The notes: generated by a model not told the origin, from the letters alone. Positions 1,495 through 22,787 are shown, counted from the first letter of the stretch. The stretch is DNA of 64,000 bases from an uncultured Methanosarcinales archaeon (GCA_964556395.1 CAZKVR010000001.1:178411-242410), one strand, 5' to 3'. Numbers and translations: made by a program.

Positions 1495-1514
1495 AATACG
1501 GAGAGCGGTGGTTT

Positions 1515-2021
1515 ATGAGGATCGCTGGCAAGGATGTGGAGTTCTACTGGAAGGCTATACGGATACCGTTGCTCATACTCGTGGCGTGGCACGTCGCCAG
1601 CCTCTTGGCGGGCGTCTTCTGGTTCGAAACGGTCTATCAGCAGGTCTTCACGAACGCGCTCGTCGGCAACGTGGTGCCGTTGGCGTTGTTCATCGTGGCG
1701 GGCTACCTCGCCGTGGCGGAACACCAGGCGGAGAACCGCCAGGCGACGTGGAGTGGTGCCTTGACTGGATTGCTCGGCGGGGCTGCGGCCGCCATCGTAG
1801 GCATCTTGGCTATCAAGCTCACGCCCGTGCTGGAGTGGAGCGTGGAGCAGGCGTTGGCGCAGGCCGCCGCATCGGGACAGGCGGTCGATAGGGGGATGGT
1901 CCGGGGCCTCACGAGGGTCATGATGACTATAGGGCTCGTCCTGTCACCGTTCATCAGCGCCTTGATAGGCGCCTTGGCCGGGTGGGTCGGAGGCCTCTTG
2001 GCGCGCAAAGTGGAGAAATAG
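1515..2021 (+). CDS. Hypothetical 4-TM membrane protein
   Basis: Four hydrophobic Gly/Ala-rich segments; ATG at 1515 chosen within ORF 1491..2021. Confidence 0.7.
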   Translation: MRIAGKDVEFYWKAIRIPLLILVAWHVASLLAGVFWFETVYQQVFTNALVGNVVPLALFIVAGYLAVAEHQAENRQATWSGALTGLLGGAAAAIVGILAIKLTPVLEWSVEQALAQAAASGQAVDRGMVRGLTRVMMTIGLVLSPFISALIGALAGWVGGLLARKVEK

Positions 2022-2026
2022 GTTCT

Positions 2027-3205
2027 TCATTCGTCGAGGTCGTCGAGGTCTTCGATGTCCTCCAATGAGAACAGTTCGTCCTCTTCGGCTTCCACCTTCT
2101 CTTCCTTCTTGACCGAGACCGATTTCTTGCCGGTGTCCTCGTCCGTCGTGGCGGTGACTGTGGTCTTGGACTCGACGGGCGGGTCTTCCTTCTTCGCGGC
2201 GGGCTCTTCCTTGCCTGACTCCTTGGCGGGCTTGGCCTCGTCGGGGTCGACATCCTTCTCAAGCTCGTACGCTACGAACTCTAGCCTTCCGAACGCCTCG
2301 TTGTTCTTCACCTTGCCGCGGGCCTTGACGACGATGCCTAGCAGGTCGGTCTTGGCGTCCTCAAACGCTCCTCCTTGGTCTTTCATCTTGAGGAGTTCGT
2401 CCCTGTTCTTGCCGAGCAGAGCTTCTATCTGCTCCCGCCAGAGCACGCACCGGATGTTGTCCGTGCTGTCGTCGAGGTAGAGGTTCATGACGTAGTTGTA
2501 CGTCGGCTCCACCTCGCCGTGCCGGGGGCAGGTGTGCTTGCCGTCCTCTTCCTTTGCCCGCGCGTTGCACTCGGGGCAGACTGCGAAGAAGTGTGGGTCG
2601 AAGACCTGTACGATGGTGGCGACGATGACCGCGTTGCCGTCGTCTTCGGAGAGCTCTGCGATCTGCTTCACCTCCGCCGGCGGCCTGGAGGATTGCGTGA
2701 CGTCGACGTCCACCGTCACTCCTTCCGGGTTGACCTGTAGCTTGGCGTCGCTGCCGAGGTGTAGCTCTGTCCGGCCGTTGTTCTCGCGGACGTAGGCCCC
2801 TTGGATGCGGATGACGTCGCCTTGCTTGATGTCTGAGAGCTGGTCGGCCTGGTCGTTCCACAACACCACGCGGGTGACGCCGGTCTCGTCCTGGAGTAGG
2901 AAGTTGCCTACCTTGCCGCTGCGGCGCTCGTTGGAGAACTCCCTGACTTCGAAGACCTGCCGCGCCTTGCCTTTTATGATGAGGTTTCGCATGCCTGAGG
3001 CGAGCTTGTCGATGGTGAGGGGCTTGTCAGGGTCTTGGAGCTTGACGTCGTGCTCGTTCGCGATGATGTGAGCCGCGCCCTCTTCTGAGATGAGTCCTGA
3101 GAGCTCTTCGAGCTTCTGGCTGATCTTCTCCCTCACCTGGGCTTCGGTGAGGTCTGTCTCTTCGGTGATGCGTTCGATGATGGTGTCGAGCGGGAGGTCT
3201 ATCAT
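2027..3205 (-). CDS. rpa: Replication protein A (ssDNA-binding, OB folds plus Zn finger)
   Basis: GLISEEGAAHIIA N-terminus; OB motifs DETG.TRVVLW and DDSTDNIRCVLW; CPEC...CPRHG zinc finger; acidic tail. Confidence 0.9.
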   Translation of the reverse strand: MIDLPLDTIIERITEETDLTEAQVREKISQKLEELSGLISEEGAAHIIANEHDVKLQDPDKPLTIDKLASGMRNLIIKGKARQVFEVREFSNERRSGKVGNFLLQDETGVTRVVLWNDQADQLSDIKQGDVIRIQGAYVRENNGRTELHLGSDAKLQVNPEGVTVDVDVTQSSRPPAEVKQIAELSEDDGNAVIVATIVQVFDPHFFAVCPECNARAKEEDGKHTCPRHGEVEPTYNYVMNLYLDDSTDNIRCVLWREQIEALLGKNRDELLKMKDQGGAFEDAKTDLLGIVVKARGKVKNNEAFGRLEFVAYELEKDVDPDEAKPAKESGKEEPAAKKEDPPVESKTTVTATTDEDTGKKSVSVKKEEKVEAEEDELFSLEDIEDLDDLDE

Positions 3206-3253
3206 GGGTATCGGGTTGCCGGAACGAGCGGAGATTTATATAGTTTGTGTGGT

Positions 3254-3283
3254 CCGACCAGGTCATTTTTCCGACCTGCTCGG
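3254..3283 (-). terminator. Candidate stem-loop just 3' of the pilin-like operon
   Basis: CCGA-C-CAGGTC / GACCTG-C-TCGG inverted repeat with 8-nt loop, immediately beyond the stop codon at 3286. Confidence 0.35.
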
Positions 3284-3285
3284 TC

Positions 3286-6231
3286 TCAGGTGAGTTTGTT
3301 GTAGTCCAGGATGGCTTGGGCTTTGAAGGGGTCCGGGTCTATCTCGAGTCCGTGGAGGTGGTCCAAAGGTTGTATGAGGGCTGGGGCTGTCATCGTGGAT
3401 AACTGGGGTGTGAGGGTGTAGCGGTTGTAGGTGTGGTTGTACTGGCCCGCGCCGTCTACCGGTACGACGGCGACGCTTACCGATCCTCGACCGACGGGTT
3501 CTTCTCCGCAGTTGAGGAGTGGTATGCGGAACTCGTAACCGCTGAAAGAGCTTGTCGTGAACGGTTGGCCGTCGCTTCTCGTGATGGTGTGGGTGAGCGC
3601 TTCTTGCGGTAGAGGCCCGCTCGCGGGCAGGCCTGACGTTGAACAGTATACGCGGTAGCTCTCGATGTCCGGGACATCGTCGCCGTCGTCGTAGCGCGTG
3701 GCGGCTTCCCATGAGATGAAGTATGCTGATATCTTGGGGAGGTATGTGGATGACAGGCTTTCCACGGGCGGCGGGATTTGGTCACGGAGCGTGAGGGCGA
3801 ACCTCGTGGGGTTTTCTTCCAGCGTGCAGAATGAGTGCGAGGAAACGTATGGCTTCCAGCCAGTCTCTCCTTCCCGCCGGCCGTAGGCCAGTCCTTGCTT
3901 GAGCCTTGTGAAGACTAGTGGCTCGTCCTCGTGCAAGTCTTGGTTTTTCAAGCGTTCTTTTCCGTCGGCTGCCCGTATGGTGATGTCGACTTCTTCCGAG
4001 CCTTCTTTGAAACGGAGAGAGATGTTGGCACGGGCCGGTCGTTCCGGGTCTTTGAGGTAGCGGTCCATCTCCTCTCCAGGGAGCATGAGCATAGGTCCGG
4101 ATGGTTGTGGGGACCAGGGCCAGAGTCTTTGTAGGAAGTTGGCAGGGGTGTCGGTCTCCACCCATACGCCGGTGCTGTTGATGACTATCTCGTAGTTCGT
4201 CGTCGGTGCTTCTGCTGGCGCTTCGAGTTCGCAAGTGGTGTCTGGTTGGGCTTGTAGGCAACCGGACAGTTGTCCGAGGATTGTTTGGGCGTGCGTTGGT
4301 TGGAAGCAGTCTTCCGTGAGGTTGTAGCCGTCCTTGGTGGTACGATTGTGTTCTGCGAGCGCTTGTCCGAGGCATGCTTTGGTGTCGTCAGTGCATGCCT
4401 GCGCTTCCTTGGCGAACCTCTCGAATGATTGGAATCGTTCGAGGTCTATAGGTATGGGTTTTTCGAAGTGCGCTTGGAAGGAGTATGTTCCCGGATACGT
4501 GCCTTCCCCTTCCTTGTTGAACTGTGCGGCATTCCCGCCGAAGAACTCGTAGAGTGTCATGACGTCTTCGACGAAGTCCGGGTCGGCCCATGGTTCGCAC
4601 TTGCCGGTGTTGTAGCGCCTGGCGGCTATCTCGTAGGGTTGTGTGTACGTCTCCTTGACGCAGATGTCCTGGTCGAAATTCTGCCCACAGCACTCCCATG
4701 AGATGGGTTTCTTCGTGGCGAGTTCCGCGACGAGGCTCGCTCCGCAACAGATGTTCTTGTCGGGGTCGAAGTAGTCTTCCTTGTCAAGGTCCTTTGAGAA
4801 GTCGCATTCCGGGACGCACCTTGATTCGTGGTGGTAGCTGGGTATTATCTGCATGAGTCCTAGGGCTCCCGTAGGGCTCTCAGCGTCCGCTATACCTCTC
4901 GACTCGTGGGCTATGAAAGCTTTGAGGATTGCTGGTTCGAGTCCTTGACGGGCCGCATGCTCTTTGATGGAGTCATCGTAATCTTCGAGTCGTTCCTCCA
5001 CTTTGGGCGTGACGCTGGATGTGTAGTCCTTGGCGGGCGCGTTAGTCCTCCCAGGGCTAGCTTCTTGCGCTTCAGTATATGGTATCTTTTCCGGTTGGTT
5101 CTTGATGGCTGTGTTGATGCGGCTACGGTAGTCTTTGAGTTTTCGTTCGAAAGCTGGTCCGGGGTCGGTCTTGTCGTCCGTGATGTCTGAGTGCATGACG
5201 AGCGCTTCTTCGCTGAGGACTTCTTGGTCGTCGAGCAGGTTTTCGTGACGTCTTGTGAGGTCTGCGACGAGCTTGACGAAGCTCTCTATCTGCTCTTCAG
5301 TATATGGTTCCCAGCACTGTTCGTCGTCGACGTTGGCGCATGAGGGGTTCCTCCCTTCGCATTCTTTCTTGTAGCCGCAGTTGACGAAGCTGATGCCGAT
5401 GCTGGGTTGGTTCGAACCCGGACGCTTGCAGTTCTCATCGTCCCGCTTGCAACCGGCGTGGTAGGCCGCTTTGTCTTCTGGTACGTGTTGTTGGACCGTG
5501 CCATCATGGTCTATGATGTAGTGGTAGCTGAAGCCTGCGTCCTGCAGAGTCCTGACGGCTCCTTCTAACGTGCCTGAAGCGGTGTAGTGCACGACTACGA
5601 AATCGACGTCATTTCCTCCTCGCCCGCCGAGGTTGAGGGGTGCGCCTCTCTGGGCGGCGTAGTGGTCGGGGGTGAAGGCGTCTCCGGCCAGGCTCATCAT
5701 CTGGTCTCCTCCGCCGGTGAATCGTATGGTGGCTGGTGAGGAACCCCTGGCAGTGAGTTTGGTGGCCCCTGGTATCGTGGCGGTCTCTAGTGCGAAGGAG
5801 GGATAGTGGTAGGTGTCTTGGGCGTTGAGCTTGAGGAATAGGATAGCCCTGAAGGCTGTCTTGAGGTTGTCTTCGAAGTCCGGGATGCAGTTTTTTTCGG
5901 GCACGCTCCATAGGGGTGTGTCGAGGTAGGTGTCGCAGGGGTACGCTCCGCCTTCGTAGTCTTTCTGGAGTCCTCCTCGGGCTCGGAACCGTTCGGCGGC
6001 TTCGATGGATGATTGCCGTGCGGCTTCGTCGAGGTAGGTGAGCGCTTTCTGGGCTTCATCCTCTGCTTGTAGGATTGCGAATTGGGCGCTTCCGAGCGGT
6101 CGGTCGCTGACGACGAGCTTCTCCGCTTGCGTGGTGATGAGGATGCTCATGACGGTTATGAATATGGCGAGCGCTAGTAGGAAGTGGAAGTTGAGCCCTT
6201 TTTTTGTTCGTCTCATCTTGCTATTCCTCAC
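3286..6231 (-). CDS. Class III signal peptide protein with N-acetylmuramoyl-L-alanine amidase (Amidase_2) domain, lytic transglycosylase (SLT) domain and C-terminal FN3-like region
   Basis: N-terminus RRTKKG|LNFHFLLALAIF. Amidase motifs VVVHYTA, SYHYIIDHDG, AYHAG, SIGIS, MHSDI, KTDPG (~5150-5610). SLT motifs FIAHES, GALGLMQI, RRYNTG (~4550-4985). Start may be ATG 6216. Confidence 0.88.
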   Translation of the reverse strand: MRNSKMRRTKKGLNFHFLLALAIFITVMSILITTQAEKLVVSDRPLGSAQFAILQAEDEAQKALTYLDEAARQSSIEAAERFRARGGLQKDYEGGAYPCDTYLDTPLWSVPEKNCIPDFEDNLKTAFRAILFLKLNAQDTYHYPSFALETATIPGATKLTARGSSPATIRFTGGGDQMMSLAGDAFTPDHYAAQRGAPLNLGGRGGNDVDFVVVHYTASGTLEGAVRTLQDAGFSYHYIIDHDGTVQQHVPEDKAAYHAGCKRDDENCKRPGSNQPSIGISFVNCGYKKECEGRNPSCANVDDEQCWEPYTEEQIESFVKLVADLTRRHENLLDDQEVLSEEALVMHSDITDDKTDPGPAFERKLKDYRSRINTAIKNQPEKIPYTEAQEASPGRTNAPAKDYTSSVTPKVEERLEDYDDSIKEHAARQGLEPAILKAFIAHESRGIADAESPTGALGLMQIIPSYHHESRCVPECDFSKDLDKEDYFDPDKNICCGASLVAELATKKPISWECCGQNFDQDICVKETYTQPYEIAARRYNTGKCEPWADPDFVEDVMTLYEFFGGNAAQFNKEGEGTYPGTYSFQAHFEKPIPIDLERFQSFERFAKEAQACTDDTKACLGQALAEHNRTTKDGYNLTEDCFQPTHAQTILGQLSGCLQAQPDTTCELEAPAEAPTTNYEIVINSTGVWVETDTPANFLQRLWPWSPQPSGPMLMLPGEEMDRYLKDPERPARANISLRFKEGSEEVDITIRAADGKERLKNQDLHEDEPLVFTRLKQGLAYGRREGETGWKPYVSSHSFCTLEENPTRFALTLRDQIPPPVESLSSTYLPKISAYFISWEAATRYDDGDDVPDIESYRVYCSTSGLPASGPLPQEALTHTITRSDGQPFTTSSFSGYEFRIPLLNCGEEPVGRGSVSVAVVPVDGAGQYNHTYNRYTLTPQLSTMTAPALIQPLDHLHGLEIDPDPFKAQAILDYNKLT

Positions 6232-6758
6232 AATGGCGTATAAACACTGATGAAAAACCTTGCCTTGTTCGCGTAGGTGACGCCTACCAGGAGGTGTACC
6301 TCGACTAGTCCGCCGTCCCTGGCAGGGAGGGTTGCTTGCGCTACGGTTCTCTTGTCGCCTTTTGCAGGCCCTGCGATCTCGAGCGTGTCCTCCCCTGTGT
6401 TCTCTGCTTCGTATGGGTAGTTGATGACGAGGCTCCAGGGGGTCTCGCTCCCTAGCTCTTCGCTGAAGTGTTGTCCGGCCCAGTGCTTGAGTAGTTCTGG
6501 GGCGTGCTTGTTCTCGGTGTCGGTGATGACTTGCGCGGCGGTGGTGTGGGAGAGTTCGGATGTGAGGAATTCGTTCAGGCTTCTGCTCATCTTGTGTTCG
6601 AAAGAGCTGGTCCGGTAGGTGCCGATGCTTTGCGACTCGCTGGCTTGGTAGGCGGCTATGATTATGAGTAGTGTGATGAGCATGATGACTAGTGCGAAGA
6701 GGTCGTCTGCGAACTCGTCCAGGAGTCCTCGTCTGCGGTTGCGGCGTGGTGGTGTCAT
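6228..6758 (-). CDS. Pilin-like protein (class III signal peptide)
   Basis: RRRG|LLDEF followed by a hydrophobic helix; stop overlaps next start (GTGA). Confidence 0.7.
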   Translation of the reverse strand: MTPPRRNRRRGLLDEFADDLFALVIMLITLLIIIAAYQASESQSIGTYRTSSFEHKMSRSLNEFLTSELSHTTAAQVITDTENKHAPELLKHWAGQHFSEELGSETPWSLVINYPYEAENTGEDTLEIAGPAKGDKRTVAQATLPARDGGLVEVHLLVGVTYANKARFFISVYTPL

Positions 6759-6765
6759 TCGCTGT

Positions 6766-7242
6766 TCACCAGGGGTTGACGTGTATGATGATGGTTGCTT
6801 GGCGTTCTTCTTCGTCTTCTCGGAGGGCGACTTCCTGTTTGAAGGTCGTCGTTGAGGATCTTTCGCCGGTCCAGGGTGTCGTGTGTAGTGAGCTCGGCCT
6901 GCTGGCCTCGGGGTCTATGATGGTGACTTTGACGGGCACTAGCTTGTACGGCGGTTCGGTCGAGAGTGTCGAGCACTTTTCGAGGTGTTCCTGGTCGAGC
7001 TTGGTGACGTCGAGGACTCTGTGGTCGATCCTGCCTGATGGTTGTTCGTAGGCGAAGCAGAGGTGGTTGTTGAGCAGTTGTTCGGCGTAGAGGGTCATCT
7101 GGAGGTCTCGGATCCGGTCCTTGTCTACGCTCGCTGTGTTGAGGGTGAAGAGCACGAGGAATATCCCTATGACTAGTATGAAGATGGTTTTGAAGACTGA
7201 GAGGAACTTCCTTGCAGTGAGGTATTGCCCTTTGCGGTCCAT
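6766..7242 (-). CDS. Pilin-like protein (class III signal peptide)
   Basis: MDRKG|QYLT then hydrophobic helix; Cys pair in head domain. Confidence 0.75.
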   Translation of the reverse strand: MDRKGQYLTARKFLSVFKTIFILVIGIFLVLFTLNTASVDKDRIRDLQMTLYAEQLLNNHLCFAYEQPSGRIDHRVLDVTKLDQEHLEKCSTLSTEPPYKLVPVKVTIIDPEASRPSSLHTTPWTGERSSTTTFKQEVALREDEEERQATIIIHVNPW

Positions 7243-8117
7243 CAGGATTCCACCTCTTCTTCACCGAGGTGCGCCCATGCTTCCGCGATTGAACTGAGGA
7301 ACCGGTTTTGATCTAAGGCGTCTGCTTGGTCTTTGGTGAACGCTAGTTCTATCCTTACTTCGTAGCTTTCGGTCTCTGCTCCTTTTTCTTCTTTGAGCGC
7401 GAGGCTGGTTCCTTGTAGTTCTTTTTTGAGCGTGCAGTAGAGGTGCTGGTAGGCTTGTTCTCGAGCCCCTTCGGCTTCCGGCCTTTTGAAGGTGAGTCTT
7501 CCGTCGTCGTCTGGCTCGCGCGATGTCAGCTTGAGGGCGAGGAATGACCCTTGGTTTCCGGCGAGTCCTTCGTCCTCGAGGTGTTTTGCGTTGAGGACGT
7601 CCGCCATGGCTTTGAGTTCGCTCTTCGTAAAGGCTGCTCCGGTGGTGGCGGTTCCTGCTTGCGCCCGGATGGTGTGCTCTCCTTCCGTACTCGGCATCGG
7701 GGGGCATTCGGTGTCCATAGCGGTTATGGTGTCTTCCTTCCCGAAGGATATGGTTCTTGAGTGCTTGGTGAGGTGTACGACGTCGCTTGCTTCTCCTTCC
7801 TTGTACGTCATGTCTTCGAGGGGCCTGTATGGTTGTGTCTGGGTGACTCCGCTACGGGTGTTCCTCACGGTCACCGCGTCCCGTTCCAGGCTTGCTTCGA
7901 AGTCTTCTTCGAGGGGGTATCGTATCGTGACGTCTCCTGGTACCGCTTGCGTGGCTTCTATGAGTAGTGCGAGGTCGTGGCTGTAGAAGTCTGCGAGGTA
8001 TCGGTGTTGTGTGTCGGCGTCTGCCGCCGCGGCTATGAAGATGGTGAGCGCTACGGCTACGATGGTGATGCTGATTATTATGAGGTTGAGCCTTTCGGAT
8101 CCTTTCTTGCTTGCCAT
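7242..8117 (-). CDS. Pilin-like protein (class III signal peptide)
   Basis: Start re-called at ATG 8117: MASKKG|SERLNLIIISITIVAV. Confidence 0.75.
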   Translation of the reverse strand: MASKKGSERLNLIIISITIVAVALTIFIAAAADADTQHRYLADFYSHDLALLIEATQAVPGDVTIRYPLEEDFEASLERDAVTVRNTRSGVTQTQPYRPLEDMTYKEGEASDVVHLTKHSRTISFGKEDTITAMDTECPPMPSTEGEHTIRAQAGTATTGAAFTKSELKAMADVLNAKHLEDEGLAGNQGSFLALKLTSREPDDDGRLTFKRPEAEGAREQAYQHLYCTLKKELQGTSLALKEEKGAETESYEVRIELAFTKDQADALDQNRFLSSIAEAWAHLGEEEVES

Positions 8118-8128
8118 GAGTATCCTCG

Positions 8129-9223
8129 CTAGTCTTCCGGCGGGTAGTCCATGCCTGCTTCTTCGCAAAAGCTGATGCAGGTTTCTCGTATGAGATCCTC
8201 TTCGTCTCCCGTGCACTCGTTGCACTTGTATTCTGCGAGTCCGTCTGGCGCTATGAATTCTCCGTCCGGGCCTTTGACGAGGCTTGGCTGGTAGGCCACT
8301 TCGTAGGCTGCTATGCGGTCGAGGCATTCTCTCGTGAGGCAGACCGCAATCCGTCCTTGCTCGAGCTTGGCGATGGTGGTGGGGAATGATTCTGGTAGGA
8401 AGTCGTAATGGCCGTAGGTGAACGGCCTGTCTTTCTTCTCGCGGGCGCGGTAGATGAGGAATCCGTTCTCGTGGATGAGGAAGGGTAGTTCTTTCTTTTT
8501 TGTTGACTCGAGTATGTTGAAAAGGGGATTGTCAGCTTCCTCCGGTCGTTGTTTGAAGTCGAAGGCTGTGAGCGGCGTGGCTATCGTGGCTCCAGATACC
8601 TGTTCGCATTGGACTCGCTCGCACTCGAGCGTGGCTTGCTCGTCGAGTCCGCGGAGGTATGCTTCTTGCCACAAATCGTTGGTATACAGTGGTTGTAGTG
8701 GTTCTCCTATGTCGACGTCGAGTCCTTCCTTGTAGTCTTCCGCGACGGTGGTGTTGATGCTGGCTCCTTCGCAGAGGCAGAGGCAGGTCTCCTCTTCGGC
8801 GCATTCACCCGGTCTTTTGAAGTGGAGGGCGTCTTGATAACCTCCACTCGTCTCCTTGCCGGGCGTGGTGAACGTGGATTTATCCCAGGCTTTGTTGAGT
8901 ATGAGGTGTAGGTCTCCGTCCCCTAACCGTCCGTTGCGCTCTTCCTCCTCCATGCGTGGGTTGAGCCCTATGAGGGCGTTTCCTGGATCAAGGTCGACCT
9001 GGGGTGTTTGTATGGCTCCTTTGGGTTCGTCGGCTATGGCTGCGACCTGCTGGTGGAATGTTCGGAAATCCTCCTCGTTCCCGCGGTTCCTGGAGAGTTC
9101 GCTCCCTATCAGGCTGAAGGGTGCTATGAGGATGACTGCTCCTATGATTATCCCTATCAGGGTTTGCAGCATGAGGCCTCTCTTGTCGAGTCTCACCCGT
9201 CCTCCATAAGCCTTCCTGCTCAT
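8129..9223 (-). CDS. Pilin-like protein (class III signal peptide) with Cys-rich head
   Basis: LDKRG|LMLQTLIGIIIGAVIL; C..CLCLC motif. Start ATG 9223 (ATGA overlap) or GTG 9196 with GGAGG upstream. Confidence 0.75.
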   Translation of the reverse strand: MSRKAYGGRVRLDKRGLMLQTLIGIIIGAVILIAPFSLIGSELSRNRGNEEDFRTFHQQVAAIADEPKGAIQTPQVDLDPGNALIGLNPRMEEEERNGRLGDGDLHLILNKAWDKSTFTTPGKETSGGYQDALHFKRPGECAEEETCLCLCEGASINTTVAEDYKEGLDVDIGEPLQPLYTNDLWQEAYLRGLDEQATLECERVQCEQVSGATIATPLTAFDFKQRPEEADNPLFNILESTKKKELPFLIHENGFLIYRAREKKDRPFTYGHYDFLPESFPTTIAKLEQGRIAVCLTRECLDRIAAYEVAYQPSLVKGPDGEFIAPDGLAEYKCNECTGDEEDLIRETCISFCEEAGMDYPPED

Positions 9224-9645
9224 GAGTTCTCCCTTGCTCTTTTCTTCTCGTAGCTTTCTTTCAGCGCCTTGGCGCAGCCCTCCTCTTCCAGGATGCAGAC
9301 TTGCTTGCCGGTCGAGGATTCTTTCTTCAGGGTGATTTCGTAGTCGAGGTCTCCGGTATCGAAGTGGTCGCAACTTCCGTCACGCGGGTCTCCGAAGTAG
9401 TAGTAGTCTCTGCCGTCCTCGGCCGTTATCACTTCTTGCCCTGAGACGCAAGGGCTGTCGTCATTGAAGTCCTTGATGCCATCTCCATCGTAGTCGCTGC
9501 TCACCGATTCGATGTAGCCGCTCAGGACGTTGTCCACGCTTCCTCCCGTCTTCTTCACTAATACGAGCATGACGATAGCGAAGACTGCGAGTATGATGAG
9601 TCCTATCATGAGGTTCGAGACTTTGTCTCCTTTCTTTCCGCGCAT
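9220..9645 (-). CDS. Pilin-like protein with DxDGDG Ca-binding-like loop
   Basis: MRGKKG|DKVSNLMIGLIILAVF; DYDGDGIKDFNDDSPC resembles a thrombospondin type 3-like acidic repeat. Confidence 0.75.
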   Translation of the reverse strand: MRGKKGDKVSNLMIGLIILAVFAIVMLVLVKKTGGSVDNVLSGYIESVSSDYDGDGIKDFNDDSPCVSGQEVITAEDGRDYYYFGDPRDGSCDHFDTGDLDYEITLKKESSTGKQVCILEEEGCAKALKESYEKKRARENS

Positions 9646-9693
9646 GTCGGCATCAACTCCTGTTGGTTTTCTTTTTTGTGGCTGTGGAGGCGT

Positions 9694-10608
9694 TCACCAC
9701 GATATTTGGCACTCCTCAGCATGAGGGTCCCATACGAGGGCTTGTTCGTTCGAGGGCACTTGTTCATATATCGAGTCGTCAGCCCCTTCTTGGAAACAGT
9801 CGTCGTCGAGGATTTGACGATTCTTCCGTACTTTGCAGTTCCCCCAACCGTCCACAGTGGGTATGAGGCATATCGAGTCTCCGCTCTTGTAGATGACGTA
9901 CCGCCCTGGTTTTCTCTGATTGTTAGCAGGGTCAACGCCTTTTTCCGTCTCCCATTCCTCCTCTTCATCTGCGAAACGCAGCTCTTCGTACGTTATCTCG
10001 AGATCTCCGTCTCCGAGGCTGTGGCAGTCTCCATCCTCGAGGGAGAACCCATCGTCCTCGCGGGCTTTCTCATCGAGGTAGTTGTAGTAGAAGCGTGACG
10101 ACTCATCGCTATAGACGACGCCTACGCTCAAGTCTCCCTCTGCATCGACCTTCTTGGGATCTGTTATGGGGTTGTGGTCGCCCTCATCTTCTCTGTCGAA
10201 CAGGAGCTGGAGCGACAGGCCATCATCGACCGGTTGGACCAGTATCTTGTGTTTTTTCAGGGACTTGTAGGGCAGCCCTCGAGGGAGGTAGTAGAGGCAT
10301 TGGTCGGCGTCGTCTCCCGCGAGGGCGACGAACGCTTGGTGGACTTCGTTGAAGACCTCTACGGCATTGTCTTGTTCTGGCCTAGCGTCGTATTTTGGAT
10401 CCTGATAGCCATCGTTCCCCAAGTACTCGTTCGGGTCGGGGAACACTGCCTTGATGCGGTTGTAGAGGGCTGCGGGTCCTATGAAGAGTATGGAGGTCAG
10501 GAGGGCTAGGAAGGCGAGCGCTATGATGAACTTGATGAACGTGCTGACGACGAGTCCTCGTTTGTCCGACCGGTGAGCCATGGGTTGTCCTTTCCTTGTC
10601 TTTTTCAT
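9694..10608 (-). CDS. Pilin-like protein (class III signal peptide)
   Basis: SDKRG|LVVSTFIKFIIALAFLALL; acidic Cys-containing head. Confidence 0.75.
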   Translation of the reverse strand: MKKTRKGQPMAHRSDKRGLVVSTFIKFIIALAFLALLTSILFIGPAALYNRIKAVFPDPNEYLGNDGYQDPKYDARPEQDNAVEVFNEVHQAFVALAGDDADQCLYYLPRGLPYKSLKKHKILVQPVDDGLSLQLLFDREDEGDHNPITDPKKVDAEGDLSVGVVYSDESSRFYYNYLDEKAREDDGFSLEDGDCHSLGDGDLEITYEELRFADEEEEWETEKGVDPANNQRKPGRYVIYKSGDSICLIPTVDGWGNCKVRKNRQILDDDCFQEGADDSIYEQVPSNEQALVWDPHAEECQISW

Positions 10609-10745
10609 AAGCGTTTGAAAAAGTCTATGATAGTGGATGAGTTGTCCGTGAATATCGCCAGTACGGCCACGATGACCAGTATCGCCAGTATCATACCGAT
10701 TATCATGTATGCTTCCATGCCTTTCTTGCGCATCTGTCTAGTCAT
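10605..10745 (-). CDS. 46-aa minimal pilin-like peptide (absent from ORF track)
   Basis: Hand translation MTRQMRKKG|MEAYMIIGMILAILVIVAVLAIFTDNSSTIIDFFKRL*. Fills the intergenic gap; ATGA overlap with the downstream gene. Confidence 0.8.
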   Translation of the reverse strand: MTRQMRKKGMEAYMIIGMILAILVIVAVLAIFTDNSSTIIDFFKRL

Positions 10746-10750
10746 GGTTT

Positions 10751-12118
10751 TCAATCCTCATGTAGGTTGCAGGGCGCGTTGTTCATGAAGTCTTCTGTGT
10801 AGGCGAATCCTATCGAGGGCGCATTGAGGTGATGCTCTCTCTTGAAGTGCGTGTTGTACCATTCAGGCGATGTGAAGGTGATGATGTGACTCCCTCCTCC
10901 ACGTATGAGGAAGGGGTCCTCGTCTTCGCCCGTGAACGTTATCGAGCCTTTCGGCCGGATATCATCGCTTGTCAATACGCCTTCGATGAGCGTGGACCCT
11001 GTGCGTCCGCCGGTGATGTAGGCGGTGTACGTCCTTTGGAACTGCATCAACTCCTCTGAGTCCTCTTCTGAGTTGTCGAGTGTTTTCTCGAGCTCCTCTG
11101 CGAAGTTGAGGAGCGCTTCTCGCGGTTCGCCGCTCGCCGCGTCCGGCTTGAAGTGCTCTTCCAAGAGCGCTTCCACCACGTAAGGGGGGAGGACTGCTGA
11201 GGAGCCGACGTCGTTGGCGTATTGCAGCTTCCCGTCGTTGAAGGAGAACAGGAAGACGTACCCGTTATCGAGCGTCTCAGAGCCTACGCTCCACTCGTTG
11301 AGGATGTTCCTGGCTACTGGTTGCTCCTCGTCCCAGACGTCTGCGGGGAGGCTTGGGATGAGGATGAAGGCTGGTGCGATGCCGTGCGCCGTGTCGATCG
11401 TTTCTAGCTGTGTGCGGAGCGTGTTGAGGGCTCGCTGGTCTTCTGAGAACAGCCCTGTGAAGTCCGCCACGTGCCGTTCGAGGCGTCGCTTGCTGTTGAG
11501 GAGCCTTTGAGGGTTCATCCGGCGTGATTCACGGCTGCTCTCGGCCAGGGTTTGGGGTTCGAACTCGTAGAAGCGGTTGTCGGCGTTCGACGCTCCGCCC
11601 GCCCGCAGGAGTCCTGGCGCGTAGTTGTGCGTGTCAAGGTAGTTTTTGAACTCCTCCGTCGTTATGGGTTCGTCCAATGCTTCGACGTCCTTGACCTTGA
11701 CGATGTAGCAGGCGTGGCAGAGGTTTTCGGGAGCCCATTTGTTCGCGAAGACGTCGTTGTATTCTCCGTTGCCGAACATCCACCAGCACGTGGCGGCTAG
11801 ATCCGCCATTTCTTCCATGGTCTGGAGGCGTACGTCGTTGTCGTCCATCCTCTTCGTGAGTTCTTGGGGTATGGTGACCTCTTCGGTCTCGCACGCTAAT
11901 GGTATCTTCCTGGCGACGGTGTCGTCAGCGTAACCCGGAAGATTATCTTTGATGTTCATCCGTCCCATGACCGAGCTGCGGCAGGCTTGCGGTCCTGTTT
12001 CCTGTCCGAGGATCGAGAAGAGCGTGTTGAGGAGGAAGATGATGATGGCGAGCCCTGCGAGCGCGAGTATCATCTTGCCGAGGCGTTCCATAGACCACAT
12101 CCCTGTTTGCCGGCTCAT
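10751..12118 (-). CDS. Pilin-like protein carrying an inserted TPM (DUF477) domain
   Basis: Degenerate signal RQTG|MWSMERLGKMILAL; C.SSV, PLAC, CWWMFG, CHAC motifs. TPM-like stretch VADFTGLFS...NEWSVG...DNGYVFLFS (~11090-11475). Confidence 0.7.
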   Translation of the reverse strand: MSRQTGMWSMERLGKMILALAGLAIIIFLLNTLFSILGQETGPQACRSSVMGRMNIKDNLPGYADDTVARKIPLACETEEVTIPQELTKRMDDNDVRLQTMEEMADLAATCWWMFGNGEYNDVFANKWAPENLCHACYIVKVKDVEALDEPITTEEFKNYLDTHNYAPGLLRAGGASNADNRFYEFEPQTLAESSRESRRMNPQRLLNSKRRLERHVADFTGLFSEDQRALNTLRTQLETIDTAHGIAPAFILIPSLPADVWDEEQPVARNILNEWSVGSETLDNGYVFLFSFNDGKLQYANDVGSSAVLPPYVVEALLEEHFKPDAASGEPREALLNFAEELEKTLDNSEEDSEELMQFQRTYTAYITGGRTGSTLIEGVLTSDDIRPKGSITFTGEDEDPFLIRGGGSHIITFTSPEWYNTHFKREHHLNAPSIGFAYTEDFMNNAPCNLHED

Positions 12119-12255
12119 GGCGAGCCCCCTCCGAAGAGCCCTCCGCTTCTCATGAGCCTCATCACGGTCATTATCACGAGTGCGAGGAACGCTATGCCTG
12201 CTATCATGAGGACGAGGTAGCTGGTGGCCATCCCTCGTGTTGCTCTCGCTCTCAT
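12115..12255 (-). CDS. 46-aa minimal pilin-like peptide (absent from ORF track)
   Basis: Hand translation MRARATRG|MATSYLVLMIAGIAFLALVIMTVMRLMRSGGLFGGGSP*. ATGA overlap with the next gene; TATA box ~25 nt upstream. Confidence 0.75.
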   Translation of the reverse strand: MRARATRGMATSYLVLMIAGIAFLALVIMTVMRLMRSGGLFGGGSP

Positions 12256-12277
12256 GCCCTCTTCAGAGAGAAGATTG

Positions 12278-12286
12278 TTTTTAAAT
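12278..12286 (-). promoter_or_regulatory. TATA box (ATTTAAAAA) for the 12255-3286 pilin operon, probably leaderless
   Basis: AT island 23-31 nt upstream of ATG 12255. Confidence 0.6.
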
Positions 12287-12343
12287 GTTGCTGTCGGGTG
12301 TTTTATAGAGGCTTAATGGGAGCCACGTGAAGGCCTGTGCGGC

Positions 12344-12387
12344 CTATAAACAATCTTTCCGGTTCATAAGCAGAATCCTTGCAAGAG
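12344..12387 (+). repeat. 44-bp dispersed intergenic repeat, copy 1
   Basis: CTATAAACAATCTTTCCGGTTCATAAGCAGAATCCTTGCAAGAG; 36/44 ungapped identity to the reverse complement of 29880-29923 (hand alignment). Confidence 0.8.
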
Positions 12388-12408
12388 TGGGTCCTCTGCA
12401 CACCTCGT

Positions 12409-12906
12409 CTAGCCGCAACAAACCTTTTCCTCATCAGGGCAGGACGCTTCGAGTTCCTGGTCATCGTTCGAGCACGCATCCATGCAAGCCCCTCCACTCT
12501 CGACGCACTCGTTCTCGGCACCCTCGACTGGTGTGCAGCAGACCAGGCCCTCTTCGCAATCAGCGGTCGACTCCCGCTCTCCCTCCTCGCACCCCTCGTC
12601 CGGTTCTCTGCACTCGCCGTTGACGTCCTCGCACTCCAGACCGGTGCCTTGGATGCCGGTGACGTCCTCCGTGTCCATGCAACAGACGTCCTGGGACTCA
12701 GGACAGTCGTAGGCGGACATGCGGGTCATGCCTGACGAGCAGAGCGGTAGGCAGTGGCCGCCGTTCTTCTCGCAGGACTTGAGGTCTGCAGAGGTGTCTA
12801 CGATGTAATCTTTTATCAGGGCGAAGTACACGACGATGAGTACTGCGAGGATGATGAAGGTGATGACGAGGTTGAGCGCCTTGCTAGCTCCGCGTCGTCC
12901 TCTCAT
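12409..12906 (-). CDS. Pilin-like protein with three 6-Cys modules
   Basis: Start re-called at ATG 12906: MRGRRG|ASKALNLVITFIIL; three C-x6-C-x3/6-C-x10/11-C-x5/6-CC modules. Confidence 0.8.
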   Translation of the reverse strand: MRGRRGASKALNLVITFIILAVLIVVYFALIKDYIVDTSADLKSCEKNGGHCLPLCSSGMTRMSAYDCPESQDVCCMDTEDVTGIQGTGLECEDVNGECREPDEGCEEGERESTADCEEGLVCCTPVEGAENECVESGGACMDACSNDDQELEASCPDEEKVCCG

Positions 12907-12910
12907 CAAG

Positions 12911-13174
12911 TCACCTCTGTGGTACGAGTCCGCAGCACTCGTAGCCTGATTGCTTGCAGAGCCTTTCGTCACCGTCCGGCTCTATCACCTTGTCGGAGTC
13001 GCACGTGCCTTGCTCGACGCACTGGCCGCTCTTCTTCGCGCACGCCGTGCTCTCTTTGAAGTTGCCGGTGCTGTCGCTCACCAGGTATATCAGCAATGCG
13101 AGGACGAGGAGCCCTAGGGCTGCGATGATGATGGTGTTGAACGAGAGCGAGACTCCGTGACGCTTCATAGCCAT
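12911..13174 (-). CDS. Small pilin-like protein with one 6-Cys module
   Basis: MAMKRHG|VSLSFNTIIIAALGLLVLALL; TGATG overlap with the upstream gene. Confidence 0.8.
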   Translation of the reverse strand: MAMKRHGVSLSFNTIIIAALGLLVLALLIYLVSDSTGNFKESTACAKKSGQCVEQGTCDSDKVIEPDGDERLCKQSGYECCGLVPQR

Positions 13175-13458
13175 CACTGGTCGCTGTGCAGCGGGATGCA
13201 GCAGTATTGTCCTTCTTCGTCGCAGCCGTGCGAGGGGTCTCTGATGTAGTCTCCACCCCGGTCCTGACCGAGGTCTCTGCAGCTGGCGTAGCTGCTCGTT
13301 CCGCCTACGCACACGCCGTTCACGCCTTGGCAGCCCGTGCTCTCGTTCACGTTGCCGCCCGCCCGGAGGACGAGGACGCTGATGATGACGAGCACGAGCA
13401 GTGAGATGGCCGCGATGATGATGACGTTCATCGAGAGGCCTTGGGCTTTAGTAGTCAT
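13174..13458 (-). CDS. Small pilin-like protein (candidate major pilin) with one 6-Cys module
   Basis: MTTKA|QGLSMNVIIIAAISLLVLVII; GAGGTGG Shine-Dalgarno before ATG 13458; own TATA box at 13506-13513. Confidence 0.8.
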   Translation of the reverse strand: MTTKAQGLSMNVIIIAAISLLVLVIISVLVLRAGGNVNESTGCQGVNGVCVGGTSSYASCRDLGQDRGGDYIRDPSHGCDEEGQYCCIPLHSDQ

Positions 13459-13505
13459 GATGTTTTCCACCTCGATAATGGTTAGTAGTTTTTCGACGAA
13501 CGGCT

Positions 13506-13513
13506 ATTTAAAT
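13506..13513 (-). promoter_or_regulatory. TATA box (ATTTAAAT) upstream of the small Cys-rich pilins
   Basis: AT island in the short intergenic region, ~50 nt upstream of the SD-led ATG 13458. Confidence 0.55.
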
Positions 13514-13523
13514 CTTGCGGTGC

Positions 13524-14027
13524 TCATCGGCAGAGGTGGAGCTCGAGGACAGCCCTTCCAGGCGCCACTCGGAACAGGCTGACTGGTTGTACGCCCGCGC
13601 CTGCGGTCTCGCCGTCGCAGGTTTCTCCGAGTTCGACGAGCGTTTCCGAATCTTCGTCTTCTCCCGGACGGTAGGTGTAGGTGAAGTGATAGTCCTCGCC
13701 CCATGGTTCCAACGTCCTGCTGAATATCTCTTCCGTGATGTTGCCGAAGGCTTGGCACGAGCTTTTGCCGTCGAGCCTGTACTTGCCGTCGCCGCGGTGG
13801 GAGCGTACGCAGTCCACCGCTACTTCACGCACCTTCAGGTCGTATCCTTGCACGTCTGCTTCGAGGAGTGTTATGAGGAGGTTTCCGGCCATCTTCTCGT
13901 CGGTGTAGACCTCGACGTTCTTCTTCGTCTCGGGCTTTGGCTGGAGGGCTATGCTGAAGAACAGTCCTAGCGTGACGAGTATCACGACGACGACGAGCCC
14001 CATCATCTCGACTTGCGCTTTCTTCAC
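13524..14027 (-). CDS. Pilin-like protein (class III signal peptide)
   Basis: Start re-called at GTG 14027 (GTGA overlap): VKKA|QVEMMGLVVVVILVTLGLFF. Confidence 0.8.
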   Translation of the reverse strand: MKKAQVEMMGLVVVVILVTLGLFFSIALQPKPETKKNVEVYTDEKMAGNLLITLLEADVQGYDLKVREVAVDCVRSHRGDGKYRLDGKSSCQAFGNITEEIFSRTLEPWGEDYHFTYTYRPGEDEDSETLVELGETCDGETAGAGVQPVSLFRVAPGRAVLELHLCR

Positions 14028-14533
14028 GAGCCCACCCCTTTGTGGTATCGTTCTATGTGCAGTATGCCGAAGGCCATGGTGTCTGCCGAGGCGTTGTGGA
14101 TGCTGACCGGTATGAGGAATGGTTGTGAGACTTGTGTCTGGTCCGTGGCGTTGTGTTCGTACAGGGTGAGGTTTTGCCCTGGCGGGTAGATCTGGTTGAG
14201 GACTACCTTGCTGTCGAAGAAGAGTTGCGAGTAGTATCCTTTGGCGGTCTCGTTGTCCTCGAGGAGGTTTGCGAACGCCATGGCTTTGTGCTTGTCGATG
14301 CACGTCGTCTTGAGGCCTTCCTTGTCGCATTTGAGCTCGAACAGGTTCGTCACGGTCTGTGCTGTCTCGACGGAGTCTCCTTCTTGGAACCCTGAGACTT
14401 GCACCTTGTATTTCTCTTCGGCCATCCTGGCGCTGAACACGAGCGCTATGACGAGTATGATGAGTATGAGTATTATGACGATTATCGATTCTCCGATCTG
14501 GAGTTGTCCTCTCTTCAGTATATCAGCGGGCAT
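14024..14533 (-). CDS. Pilin-like protein (class III signal peptide)
   Basis: LKRG|QLQIGESIIVIILILIIL. Confidence 0.8.
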   Translation of the reverse strand: MPADILKRGQLQIGESIIVIILILIILVIALVFSARMAEEKYKVQVSGFQEGDSVETAQTVTNLFELKCDKEGLKTTCIDKHKAMAFANLLEDNETAKGYYSQLFFDSKVVLNQIYPPGQNLTLYEHNATDQTQVSQPFLIPVSIHNASADTMAFGILHIERYHKGVGS

Positions 14534-15507
14534 CGTGGTCCTCTCTTGATGAGCTCGTTGGTGGACTCGACACTCCTCATAGCGTCAGCCATGTCTTTGA
14601 GGGGGTCGCCGCCTGCCAGCTTTTTCAGCGGATCGTTCGCGGAGCCGAGGTATGTCCAGCAGTTGGTGTCTTCCAACTCCTCTTCAAGCCTGTCGAGGCG
14701 TCCTTTGATGATGGTGGCGAGCATGCGCTGCCTCGTCCGGGCCTTCGCGACGGTGCAGTCGTACGTATCCGCGTCTTCGGTGAAGATGGCGCCCCAGAGC
14801 ATCGGTTCCGTGACGTAATCTCCATCCTCCTCCGTACCGTCGTGCTTGAACGTGACCTCGCCCGTCGGGTACTGGCCGTTGCCTGAAGTGATGACCCTGA
14901 CGTGCGCCTTGTCCTCGATACCGGTAGGCACGTCCAGGTCGTCGTCGGTGGTGATGATGACGTACCGGTCATAGCCGGCTTCCGACACGCCTTCGAGCTG
15001 CGCCTCGGTGAGGAGGTGCTTGTCGAACTCGTCAGGCATCTCTTCGTAGAGCTTCTCCTCGATCGAGGTATCTGTATCGTTGACGAAGAGGAAGGTCACG
15101 CGGTCGCTGGCGAGGTGCGTGATGACCATGACCGGGAACGGTGCGTGCCATGTCTGGGTCCACATCGTCACCTCCTTGCCTTCAACGGTTGCGGGTACGA
15201 AGAGTGCTTGGTGCTTCGTGTCGACCGGCCCCGCCCCTTGTATGTAGTATTGGGAGAGCCCTGGCTCGCAGTCGAACCTGATGTCGGCGTCGCTCAGCCT
15301 GAAGGTCTCTACCGTGTCAGGGTTGCTCGAGATGGCCGTGAACACGTTGTCGACGGTCTTGACGAGCTCCGTCGCCTCTTCCGCGTCGGCGCGCTTCTCC
15401 TGGTTGTTGATGACGGTGAGGAAGAACGCCAGGATGACGGCTCCTATGATGAGGATGAATATCCAGTTGAACTGGAGGCTTATCTGTCCTCGAGAGTCAC
15501 ATACCAT
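14515..15507 (-). CDS. Pilin-like protein (class III signal peptide)
   Basis: SRG|QISLQFNWIFILIIGAVILAFF. Confidence 0.8.
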   Translation of the reverse strand: MVCDSRGQISLQFNWIFILIIGAVILAFFLTVINNQEKRADAEEATELVKTVDNVFTAISSNPDTVETFRLSDADIRFDCEPGLSQYYIQGAGPVDTKHQALFVPATVEGKEVTMWTQTWHAPFPVMVITHLASDRVTFLFVNDTDTSIEEKLYEEMPDEFDKHLLTEAQLEGVSEAGYDRYVIITTDDDLDVPTGIEDKAHVRVITSGNGQYPTGEVTFKHDGTEEDGDYVTEPMLWGAIFTEDADTYDCTVAKARTRQRMLATIIKGRLDRLEEELEDTNCWTYLGSANDPLKKLAGGDPLKDMADAMRSVESTNELIKRGPRCPLIY

Positions 15508-15514
15508 GAGGCGT

Positions 15515-16039
15515 TCACCCGTCGTAGAGGTAGATACCGTTCTTGCCGTACCCTTCCATCCAGAAGGAGAACTGCTTGTTCGTGCTGTTGATGCAGAGGA
15601 GCTCTTCCCCTGACCCGTCTTCGGGGTTGATAGTCCTTATCCGCTCGTCGAACAGGACGGGTGTGGTGACGCCGTCGTTGCTCTCGTCGATGAGGTACAC
15701 GTTGTACTCGATGCCATCCCGGGTGTTAGCCCATATCATCGGGTAGTCCGTCTCGATGTCGGAGCCGAGGTCGCTCTCCCCGGTCACGTTCGGCGCGTTG
15801 ACGAAGCAGAGCTTGTGGAAGTCGCAGGGCGCGTGGAGCACGCTGTTCGTACGGCTCAGGTACCTGACGGAATCGTCGAGGTCGTCCTGCAGCCTCGTCA
15901 TGAACTGCTGGTCCGCGACCTCGCATTGCTGGTTGAGCAGCTTGTCGATCATCTGGTATCCGAAGAGTATGAGGAATCCTATGACTAGTATGGCCATGAT
16001 GTAGATGAAAACCTGCTTCACTTGCCCTTTCCGTCCCAT
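15515..16039 (-). CDS. Pilin-like protein (class III signal peptide)
   Basis: MGRKG|QVKQVFIYIMAILVIGFLILFGY. Confidence 0.85.
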   Translation of the reverse strand: MGRKGQVKQVFIYIMAILVIGFLILFGYQMIDKLLNQQCEVADQQFMTRLQDDLDDSVRYLSRTNSVLHAPCDFHKLCFVNAPNVTGESDLGSDIETDYPMIWANTRDGIEYNVYLIDESNDGVTTPVLFDERIRTINPEDGSGEELLCINSTNKQFSFWMEGYGKNGIYLYDG

Positions 16040-22764: not shown

Positions 22765-22787
22765 GATTGCCTCTTTTTTGTCATGGT

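Follow-up and report, generated by a model that had tools for sequence, protein, structure and literature searches.

A gene coding for an archaeal protein with two domains of peptidoglycan-cleaving enzymes lies on the minus strand of a 64,000-nt stretch of DNA (GCA_964556395.1 CAZKVR010000001.1:178411-242410; the whole of this stretch is called the window below). The protein joins an N-terminal module with a class III (prepilin-type) signal, named here the carrier module, to an Amidase_2 domain, an SLT lytic transglycosylase domain and a long C-terminal tail (Table 1, with residues numbered from the GTG start codon). An earlier note, made from the sequence alone, had placed an open reading frame (ORF) here and had read it as a pilin-signal protein fused to an amidase and a lytic transglycosylase. 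The ORF was recovered at exactly the coordinates given there, on the minus strand and with a GTG start. All the motifs that the note quoted are found in its translation: KKG/LNF (the slash marks the cleavage position) with a hydrophobic stretch of 22 residues, HYT, SYHY, SIGIS, MHSD, KTDPG, IAHES, GLMQ and YNTG. The hidden Markov model search that it had proposed gives both domains, Amidase_2 and SLT, above the curated Pfam cut-off. The domain matches are far beyond chance, and the motifs are kept in homologues of 28–62% identity. We think that the ATG at residue 6 is the likelier start codon because the public record of the same protein begins there; the leader then reads MRRTKKG.

Table 1. 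Features of the two-enzyme gene and of its surroundings, in window coordinates.
Feature	Position (nt)	Strand	Description
Whole ORF	3286..6231	-	981 aa counted from the GTG and 976 aa if the ATG at 6214-6216 is the start; built of four parts, namely carrier module, amidase, lytic transglycosylase and Cys-rich/FN3 tail
Basic leader MRRTKKG, residues 6-13	6193..6216	-	Ends in the K-G of the class III (prepilin-type) cleavage motif
Hydrophobic helix, residues 14-36	6124..6192	-	LNFHFLLALAIFITVMSILITTQ; placed by the model within helix 10-42
Carrier module, residues 1-195	5647..6231	-	Signal, long amphipathic helix 46-84, small alpha/beta part with invariant C99/C115
Amidase_2, residues 206-359	5155..5616	-	Zn ligands H215, H347, D356; T7-lysozyme-type Tyr236 and Lys354; Ser at the AmpD Glu position
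SLT/GH23 lytic transglycosylase, residues 421-570	4522..4971	-	E443-S444, GLMQ 458-461, Cys-rich insertion, YNTG around Y540
C-terminal region, residues 571-981	3289..4521	-	Cys-rich three-helix part, beta-sandwiches, FN3-like domain at about 817-945 (nt 3397-3783)
g13, 176 aa	6228..6758	-	Class III-like N-terminus (RRRG/LLDEF...); predicted carrier-binding partner
g12 to g01, twelve co-directional genes	6766..16039	-	Nearly all with [KR][GA] and then a hydrophobic helix
g07	10751-12118	-	TPM domain (PF04536, E 2e-12); relatives at the same place in several other genomes
RPA-type single-strand DNA-binding protein	2027..3205	-	Conserved downstream neighbour marking the operon end; not part of the device

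Amidase Domain

The Amidase_2 match (PF01510) has an E-value of 5.6e-27 and 95.1 bits against a cut-off of 26, and it covers positions 2–131 of the 131 of the profile. The closest solved structure is that of AmpDh2 from P. aeruginosa (4bol, E 2.1e-13). H215, H347 and D356 align with the zinc-ligand positions of AmpD and T7 lysozyme. In an alignment of 11 family members (A1), H215, Y238, H347 and K354 do not vary and D356 is found in ten, and the zinc ligands are retained in all seven archaeal sequences of a further alignment (A2).

The position of the catalytic Glu of AmpD reads as had been noted earlier, since the SIGIE of AmpDh2 aligns with the SIGIS of our protein; across the 11 members this position is occupied by Ser in nine, Ala in one and Glu in one. 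The Tyr of SYHY, to which attention had been drawn as a catalytic substitute, is also in place: Y236 aligns with Tyr46 of T7 lysozyme (GYHF), and K354 aligns with Lys128 of the same enzyme in an alignment with T7 lysozyme and E. coli AmpD. The catalytic roles of this Tyr/Lys pair in T7 lysozyme and of the Glu in AmpD are known from the literature. The presence of the Tyr covaries with the loss of the Glu. Where the Glu is present, the position of Tyr46 is occupied by Ala (E. coli AmpD, AmpDh2 and the homologue at locus L017) or, in P0012, by Ser; the sequences without the Glu, namely the clade of our protein and T7 lysozyme, have Tyr.

The domain has, besides the Tyr and Lys that characterize the T7 lysozyme/peptidoglycan recognition protein (PGRP) subtype, the His/His/Asp zinc site of the AmpD type, and it therefore presents the pattern expected of an active enzyme. 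Judged from the alignments, it keeps the catalytic residues of the amidases that cleave the bond between N-acetylmuramic acid (MurNAc) and L-Ala. It shares the Amidase_2 fold with AmpDh2, E. coli AmpD and T7 lysozyme, but it is a hybrid of them, with Ser instead of the catalytic Glu of AmpD and Asp instead of the Cys ligand of T7 lysozyme. It also differs from them in its Cys-rich insertions and in sitting within a 981-residue surface protein.

Lytic Transglycosylase Domain and C-Terminal Region

The SLT match (PF01464) extends over residues 421–509 with an E-value of 3.2e-12 and 46.5 bits against a cut-off of 21.3. The remaining part of the domain, including YNTG, lies past a Cys-rich insertion of about 75 residues. 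The catalytic Glu-Ser (IAHES), GLMQ and YNxG motifs claimed for this domain are all intact in our protein: Glu-Ser and GLMQ align with the solved transglycosylase 9vi7, and YNTG was found in the sequence at Y540. Among the 11 aligned members, E443 is kept in ten, and S444 and Y540 in all. These motifs are those of the family 1 lytic transglycosylases (MltE/EmtA, 3t36; transglycosylase C, 9vi7), from which the domain differs by the weakness of the similarity (E about 0.009) and by its insertion, placed between GLMQ and YNxG. At the loci L022 (10.0–13.1 kb) and L023 (10.0–12.9 kb), which belong to same-genus relatives, the amidase residues are intact while the SLT motifs decay, which suggests that constraint differs between the two enzymes in these relatives.

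The model of the C-terminal region, with a mean predicted local distance difference test (pLDDT) of 70.1, consists of a Cys-rich helical part, beta-sandwiches and an FN3-like domain. Foldseek matched it to FN3 arrays and to SiiE (best E 5.8e-5). The best VIA match was the FN3 module of the cortex-lytic enzyme SleM (Z 9.3, root-mean-square deviation (rmsd) 2.5, 94 aligned residues), tied with many FN3 domains, and the FN3/Ig-like hits obtained from the ESM Atlas with scores of 0.76–0.78 are leads only. Thirteen Cys positions are invariant across the family in the alignment of 11 members, which supports an extracellular location of the protein.

Carrier Module with Variable Cargo

The class III signal claimed for the N-terminus was borne out at the level of sequence: MRRTKKG/LNFHFLLALAIF... 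has a short basic leader that closes with [KR][GA], the hydrophobic helix comes directly behind it, and the motif is conserved in the orthologues. Over the first 200 residues of 24 orthologues, whose mean identity to this N-terminus is only about 21% (alignment A3), the residue at −1 is G or A in 23 and S in one, and 22 have K or R at −2. We also considered a Sec-type signal and rejected it, as the candidate cleavage site TQA/E after the helix occurs in our protein only, and no signal peptidase I site after the helix is conserved in the family alignment. The AlphaFold2 model of the carrier (mean pLDDT 80.1) comprises the helices 10–42 and 46–84 and a small alpha/beta part with the C99/C115 pair.

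A profile of the first ~195 residues matches 294 of the 401 sampled genomes of the phylum, almost always in a single copy, and one copy is held by the genome of the window. In 14 loci from other genera, families and sister orders, a run of class III-signal genes leads up to the carrier, which invariably closes it. The cargo behind it is diverse: none (frames of 166–290 aa), the amidase alone (~400 aa), SLT with the C-terminal module, amidase and SLT with the C-terminal module, the C-terminal module without an enzyme (L052, L056), or unknown domains. Stop-to-stop frames with the carrier extend from 175 to 1860 aa, with 29 of up to 330 aa, 71 of 331–700 aa and 50 longer ones among the 150 of 306 carrier matches that were counted by hand (five rows come from genomes flagged as unpublished). 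Carrier and Amidase_2 share one frame in at least 14 of the 401 genomes, from six families, according to a cross-reference of coordinates made by hand; carrier and SLT do so in at least 25, and all three in at least seven. In the whole sample, Amidase_2 is found in 64 genomes and SLT in 209 (206 of them over the cut-off), with up to six SLT copies per genome. The tallies include a few genomes flagged as unpublished (one for SLT, five for the carrier and two for another phylum tally), and no other claim rests on them. The first ~195 residues of the protein are, in short, a conserved and usually single-copy carrier with variable cargo, which is new here. In the sister orders, SLT is also found in frames of 2000–3100 aa that lack the carrier module. 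These frames may be the "large" proteins of the literature, a separate deployment of the same enzyme.

Operon and Predicted Partner

Eight of the ~14 genes of the operon pass a strict class III filter, compared with 49 of 1004 ORFs genome-wide, and those that fail it do so for the sole reason of a charged residue early in the helix. Searched against Pfam with E-values of up to 5 allowed, the operon proteins yielded sub-threshold noise only. The same order of ~13 class III-signal genes ending in the fused hydrolase is found at L022 and L023, where the homologues of our protein are 34% and 28% identical. At L022 the hydrolase is followed by RPA and a membrane protein, as in the window, and the L023 record ends at the hydrolase gene. 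At the 14 more distant loci (L034–L047), relatives of g01–g04, g07 (TPM) and g11–g12 are recognizable upstream of the carrier. RPA directly adjoins the carrier gene in ten of these loci, lies within a few genes in three more and was not found in L041. In the comparison with L022, our protein is 34% identical and the other operon proteins 23–44%, versus 56–58% for RPA and an ABC-like neighbour; this divergence pattern fits fast-diverging surface proteins under diversifying pressure.

A complex of the carrier with g13 was predicted with a score of 0.68, and the best of three controls scored 0.00. The mark set for this score is reached by 58 of 80 solved complexes and by 2 of 110 mismatched pairs, rates which are approximate, custom alignments having been used. 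The runs agree in at least 59% of the contacts, with a partner pLDDT of at least 73. The confident contacts involve residues 51–77 and 134–140 of the carrier and residues 51–79 and 142–151 of g13; these are the most conserved soluble motifs of both families, not the hydrophobic helices. The carrier is, thus, predicted to bind g13 through conserved soluble surfaces.

Elsewhere in the same genome, the components of type IV filaments are available. A Peptidase_A24 prepilin peptidase (E 4.7e-16) is encoded, together with five T2SSE ATPase matches over the cut-off and seven T2SSF platform matches, which lie in four loci beside the ATPases. Canonical archaeal pilins are found near these T2SSE/T2SSF loci.

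Upstream of the operon, the window carries three giant ORFs at 16039-22836, 22788-26462 and 30998-37012, all on the minus strand, coding for surface proteins of 2265, 1224 and 2004 aa with Sec-like N-termini and giving only sub-threshold Ig-like or DUF1554 matches. In relatives, TSP3/Big_13 adhesin-like proteins are encoded at the place that corresponds to theirs. A protein of 1085 aa encoded outside the main operon (26528-29785, minus strand) has a class III-like N-terminus (RLKG/QATIFVV...) and only weak sub-threshold Tad and Ig-like matches.

Host Genome and Provenance

The earlier note had supposed a DPANN archaeon as the producer. In agreement with this, the window has an archaeal gene set (L32e, S4e, L5e/L18, SecY, a Hef-type helicase-ERCC4 nuclease, RPA and a fused primase), the genome is of 1.06 Mb (1,055,321 bases in 20 contigs, with a completeness of 93.75% and a contamination of 0.32%) and relatives of the protein are titled Candidatus Woesearchaeota archaeon. 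The stretch was found in sequencing runs labelled as hypersaline lake or microbial mat metagenomes, and no RNA run was listed as containing it.

The note had also raised the case of a bacterial contig misjoined to the archaeal scaffold, and this could be excluded. The gene lies within a 277-kb contig of an assembly whose contigs range in guanine-plus-cytosine (GC) content from 0.54 to 0.61, and the GC around the gene, 0.557–0.594, is inside the window range of 0.505–0.633. In run X1, which is maybe the source sample, two long contigs cover positions 1500–4112 and 4102–8500. Contigs of a second study bridge the junction between RPA and the hydrolase (X2 record 4, 3089–3863; X6 record 20, 3151–3682) and that between the hydrolase and g13 (X2 record 8, 6076–6826; X3 record 14, 6104–6723), all at ≥99% identity and with no joints; parts of the stretch have no contig cover in X3 and X6, which is uninformative. 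These bridging contigs, together with the gene order conserved in L022 and L023, refute a misjoin. A prophage origin was likewise rejected on the grounds of the gene order conserved in relatives and of junctions bridged by the contigs of the second study. The fusion of carrier, amidase and SLT is confirmed as a genuine gene of a Woesearchaeota-type (DPANN) archaeon.

Some other observations concern the window and its relatives. A single ORF of 542 aa at 53040-54668 (minus strand) matches both the small and the large primase families, as a fused PriS/PriL. For most of its length the window has a strongly negative AT skew, reaching −0.52, and its minus strand carries almost all long genes; tRNA and Rfam scans of the 64 kb returned nothing. 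The bacterial homologues collected comprise seven weak hits (L027–L033) and two reference enzymes. The records L024 and L026, titled uncultured Methanosarcinales archaeon, agree with L014 and L016 in their domain coordinates and, fully or nearly so, in their E-values; since L014 and L016 belong to genomes from the order of the window, the taxon labels of L024 and L026 look wrong.

The genome provides no indication of a murein metabolism. Neither Mur_ligase_M nor FtsW/RodA (SEDS) was matched in the 93.75%-complete genome, as would be expected if the producer makes no murein, which the earlier note had assumed. The search for MurNAc catabolism in the same genome gave no AnmK and no GH3, and MurQ stayed below the cut-off (22.5 vs 302 bits). 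The fused gene is the only Amidase_2 or SLT gene of the genome. Given that genes for murein synthesis and MurNAc catabolism are missing, murein is unlikely to be either the wall of this archaeon or its sugar source, with the completeness of 93.75% leaving the absence unproven. Breaching of a wall is favoured over feeding on amino sugars because AnmK, GH3 and a MurQ over the cut-off are lacking.

Proposed Mechanism and Alternatives

On balance, we think that the protein probably belongs to a cell-associated device that is presented via the class III-signal carrier and opens bacterial walls with two complementary enzymes, and the locus, taken together, resembles a contact apparatus. The short basic leader would be removed by the A24 prepilin peptidase of the genome. 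The hydrophobic helix and the carrier module would then serve for docking to further class III-signal proteins encoded in the operon, among them at least g13. Given its bulk, the protein would be located at the tip or the base of a type-IV-filament-like structure. The Cys-rich/FN3 tail might act as a stalk or contact element. The lytic transglycosylase would cut the bonds between MurNAc and N-acetylglucosamine and the zinc amidase would strip the stem peptides from MurNAc, so that the two together could open a local breach in the bacterial sacculus for attachment, for access to the contents of the partner or for killing. The bacterial partner might be a host, a prey or a competitor. Of the interpretation offered by the earlier note, the archaeal, DPANN-like host, the conserved catalytic residues, the class III-like N-terminus, the absence of murein synthesis and the integrity of the scaffold stood up; its idea of bacterial targeting had already been published.

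Several results weigh against a wall-breaching filament device. For the carrier, no Pfam pilin family was matched even at E up to 5, Foldseek gave no match at E ≤ 0.001, and the best VIA match, a phage sheath (Z 7.2, rmsd 3.1, 81 aligned residues), is within noise, although a pilin may escape such searches. Within the window, no ATPase, platform or peptidase gene is found in or beside the operon, and among the eight upstream ORFs of six relatives there is no filament machinery either, but TSP3/Big_13 (Ig-repeat) adhesin-like proteins. According to a 2026 survey, type IV filament systems are sparse in DPANN. On the side of the enzymes, the amidase does not have the Glu in the SIGIE strand that defines the AmpD subtype, the SLT profile is covered only at positions 2–84 of 117 with a large insertion, and the Pfam scan recognized no wall-binding domain in the protein. 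Transglycosylase activity is not always maintained, since in the two same-genus relatives E443 is replaced by Ser (P0006, L022) or GLMQ is gone (P0010, L023); GLMQ is also lost in P0009. Finally, SLT is so common in the phylum sample that a role unrelated to bacteria has to be entertained.

The chief rival keeps the enzymes and their target and drops the filament. The protein would be a bacteriolytic or scavenging enzyme, on the surface or secreted, whose helix serves as a membrane anchor or as a signal removed for release, and which kills competitors or harvests wall peptides in the mat. It is a serious candidate, if an unlikely one. The lack of a recognized pilin family or fold, the absence of assembly genes from the operon and the possible signal peptidase I site after the helix, seen in our protein alone, are in line with it, and killing of bacteria by secreted archaeal peptidoglycan hydrolases is documented in Strock 2025 (PMC12352652). 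However, it is the [KR][GA] before the helix that is conserved (23 of 24 orthologues) and not the TQA site, the gene is fixed as the last member of a class III-signal operon, and the carrier is predicted to bind g13 by conserved soluble surfaces with a score well apart from that of the best control.

The remaining explanations concern the enzymes and the origin of the gene. We consider it quite improbable that the substrate is other than bacterial murein, for instance a glycan of an archaeal partner or of the archaeon's own envelope, cut to let a filament pass as bacterial pilus- or secretion-associated transglycosylases do. To our knowledge, the known DPANN hosts are archaea, and GH23 enzymes with chitinase activity exist; an amidase without the AmpD Glu, an SLT domain with an unusual insertion and the presence of SLT in more than half of the sampled genomes, often in several copies, point in the same direction. 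On the other hand, the genome of our archaeon has neither a Mur ligase nor a SEDS match, the amidase domain has the zinc site and the Tyr/Lys pair found in enzymes that cleave MurNAc-L-Ala, and pseudomurein, as far as we know, has no MurNAc-lactyl-peptide bond. Only two homologues of peptidoglycan hydrolases occur in the pseudomurein-making classes, according to Strock 2025 (PMC12352652). It is more improbable still that one or both domains are catalytically dead and the protein is an adhesin that only binds peptidoglycan. The missing AmpD-type Glu and the decay of SLT motifs in some close relatives could be taken in this sense, as non-catalytic PGRPs exist; these lose a zinc ligand, however, whereas here the three zinc ligands, the Tyr and the Lys are conserved in the clade, and the SLT motifs Glu-Ser, GLMQ and YNxG are intact in our protein. 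Bacterial or viral DNA misjoined to the scaffold has a negligible probability. Both enzyme families are typically bacterial and neither was matched in the four archaea among 14 control genomes, but the GC content, the long contig with both junctions bridged, the recurrence of the gene order in L022 and L023 and an N-terminal module specific to the operon of this archaeal phylum all speak against it.

Relation to Known Systems

Murein transglycosylases of DPANN archaea and their possible bacterial targets are already published, so the broad inference is not new. In Castelle 2021, large extracellular proteins with murein-like transglycosylase domains are described in Woesearchaeota and Pacearchaeota, the corresponding cluster is named DPANN fam00969, and bacterial hosts are raised for some of these archaea. 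Predation was proposed for transglycosylase-bearing DPANN by Vigneron 2022, and a survey of the oxygen-deficient zone (ODZ) mentions the transglycosylase in three metagenome-assembled genomes. Our protein shares with those of Castelle 2021 and Vigneron 2022 the phylum-level group, the SLT/GH23 domain and the inferred attachment to, or attack on, bacterial walls. Compared by description only, the published proteins are different in being up to ~3000 aa long and in the absence, in the available texts, of any mention of an amidase, a class III signal, a carrier or an operon. No mention of the amidase fusion, the class III signal or the operon was found in the searched literature on DPANN transglycosylases, whose supplements, which may list the family, were outside the search.

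The archaeal hydrolases of Strock 2025 (PMC12352652) are likewise aimed at bacterial murein. Such enzymes are shown there to kill bacteria and are noted as prominent in Nanoarchaeota; a wall-binding domain was a condition for inclusion in that survey, which reports signal peptides of the Sec and Tat types. Our protein, in contrast, has neither a recognized wall-binding domain nor a Sec/Tat signal, and the examples demonstrated there are secreted haloarchaeal enzymes with one catalytic domain.

Another point of comparison is given by the modular pilins of the PilB type from S. sanguinis, which Raynaud 2021 (PMC8179133) defines in bacteria only, with the word archaea absent from the portion consulted. 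As described there, a small N-terminal module with a class III signal is followed by a bulky functional module, relatives differ in their cargo and the proposed place of the protein is the tip; each of these points has its counterpart here, the location again as a proposal. The differences are that our carrier has no recognized pilin signature or fold and that its cargo consists of two wall-cutting enzymes.

The combination of activities also has precedents. Peptidoglycan hydrolases with two activities at phage tail tips (e.g., gp13 of phi29) and type VI effectors that pair glycan- and peptide-cutting enzymes exist. By analogy, our protein may resemble them in carrying cutters of both glycan and peptide at the end of a fibre, by which a local hole would be opened in a foreign wall. 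It differs from the phi29 gp13-type tail tips in that the carrier has no homology to them and the producer is a cell instead of a virion.

Significance

We know of no demonstration of what Woesearchaeota-type archaea attach to, and the published hint of bacterial targeting rests on the mere presence of transglycosylase domains. The locus described here makes this hint testable. It offers a carrier module, g13 as the predicted partner together with a map of their interface, a cleavage motif and two enzymes with named catalytic residues, within a conserved operon that is present in about three quarters of the sampled genomes.

A more general view can be put forward tentatively, as possible rather than probable. 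The Woesearchaeales and their sister orders might have in common an archaeal version of the minor-pilin tip complex of bacteria, formed by ~14 class III-signal proteins and ended by a carrier whose exchangeable cargo decides which foreign envelope is opened, and the lineages bearing amidase or SLT cargo or both, that of the window among them, might live on bacteria or prey on them. This would amount to cross-domain episymbiosis or predation, with a molecular device that is now defined and can be tested. The swappable cargo suggests that uncultured lineages could be sorted by the type of envelope that they can breach. Moreover, such a system would extend the idea of modular pilins from bacteria to archaea.

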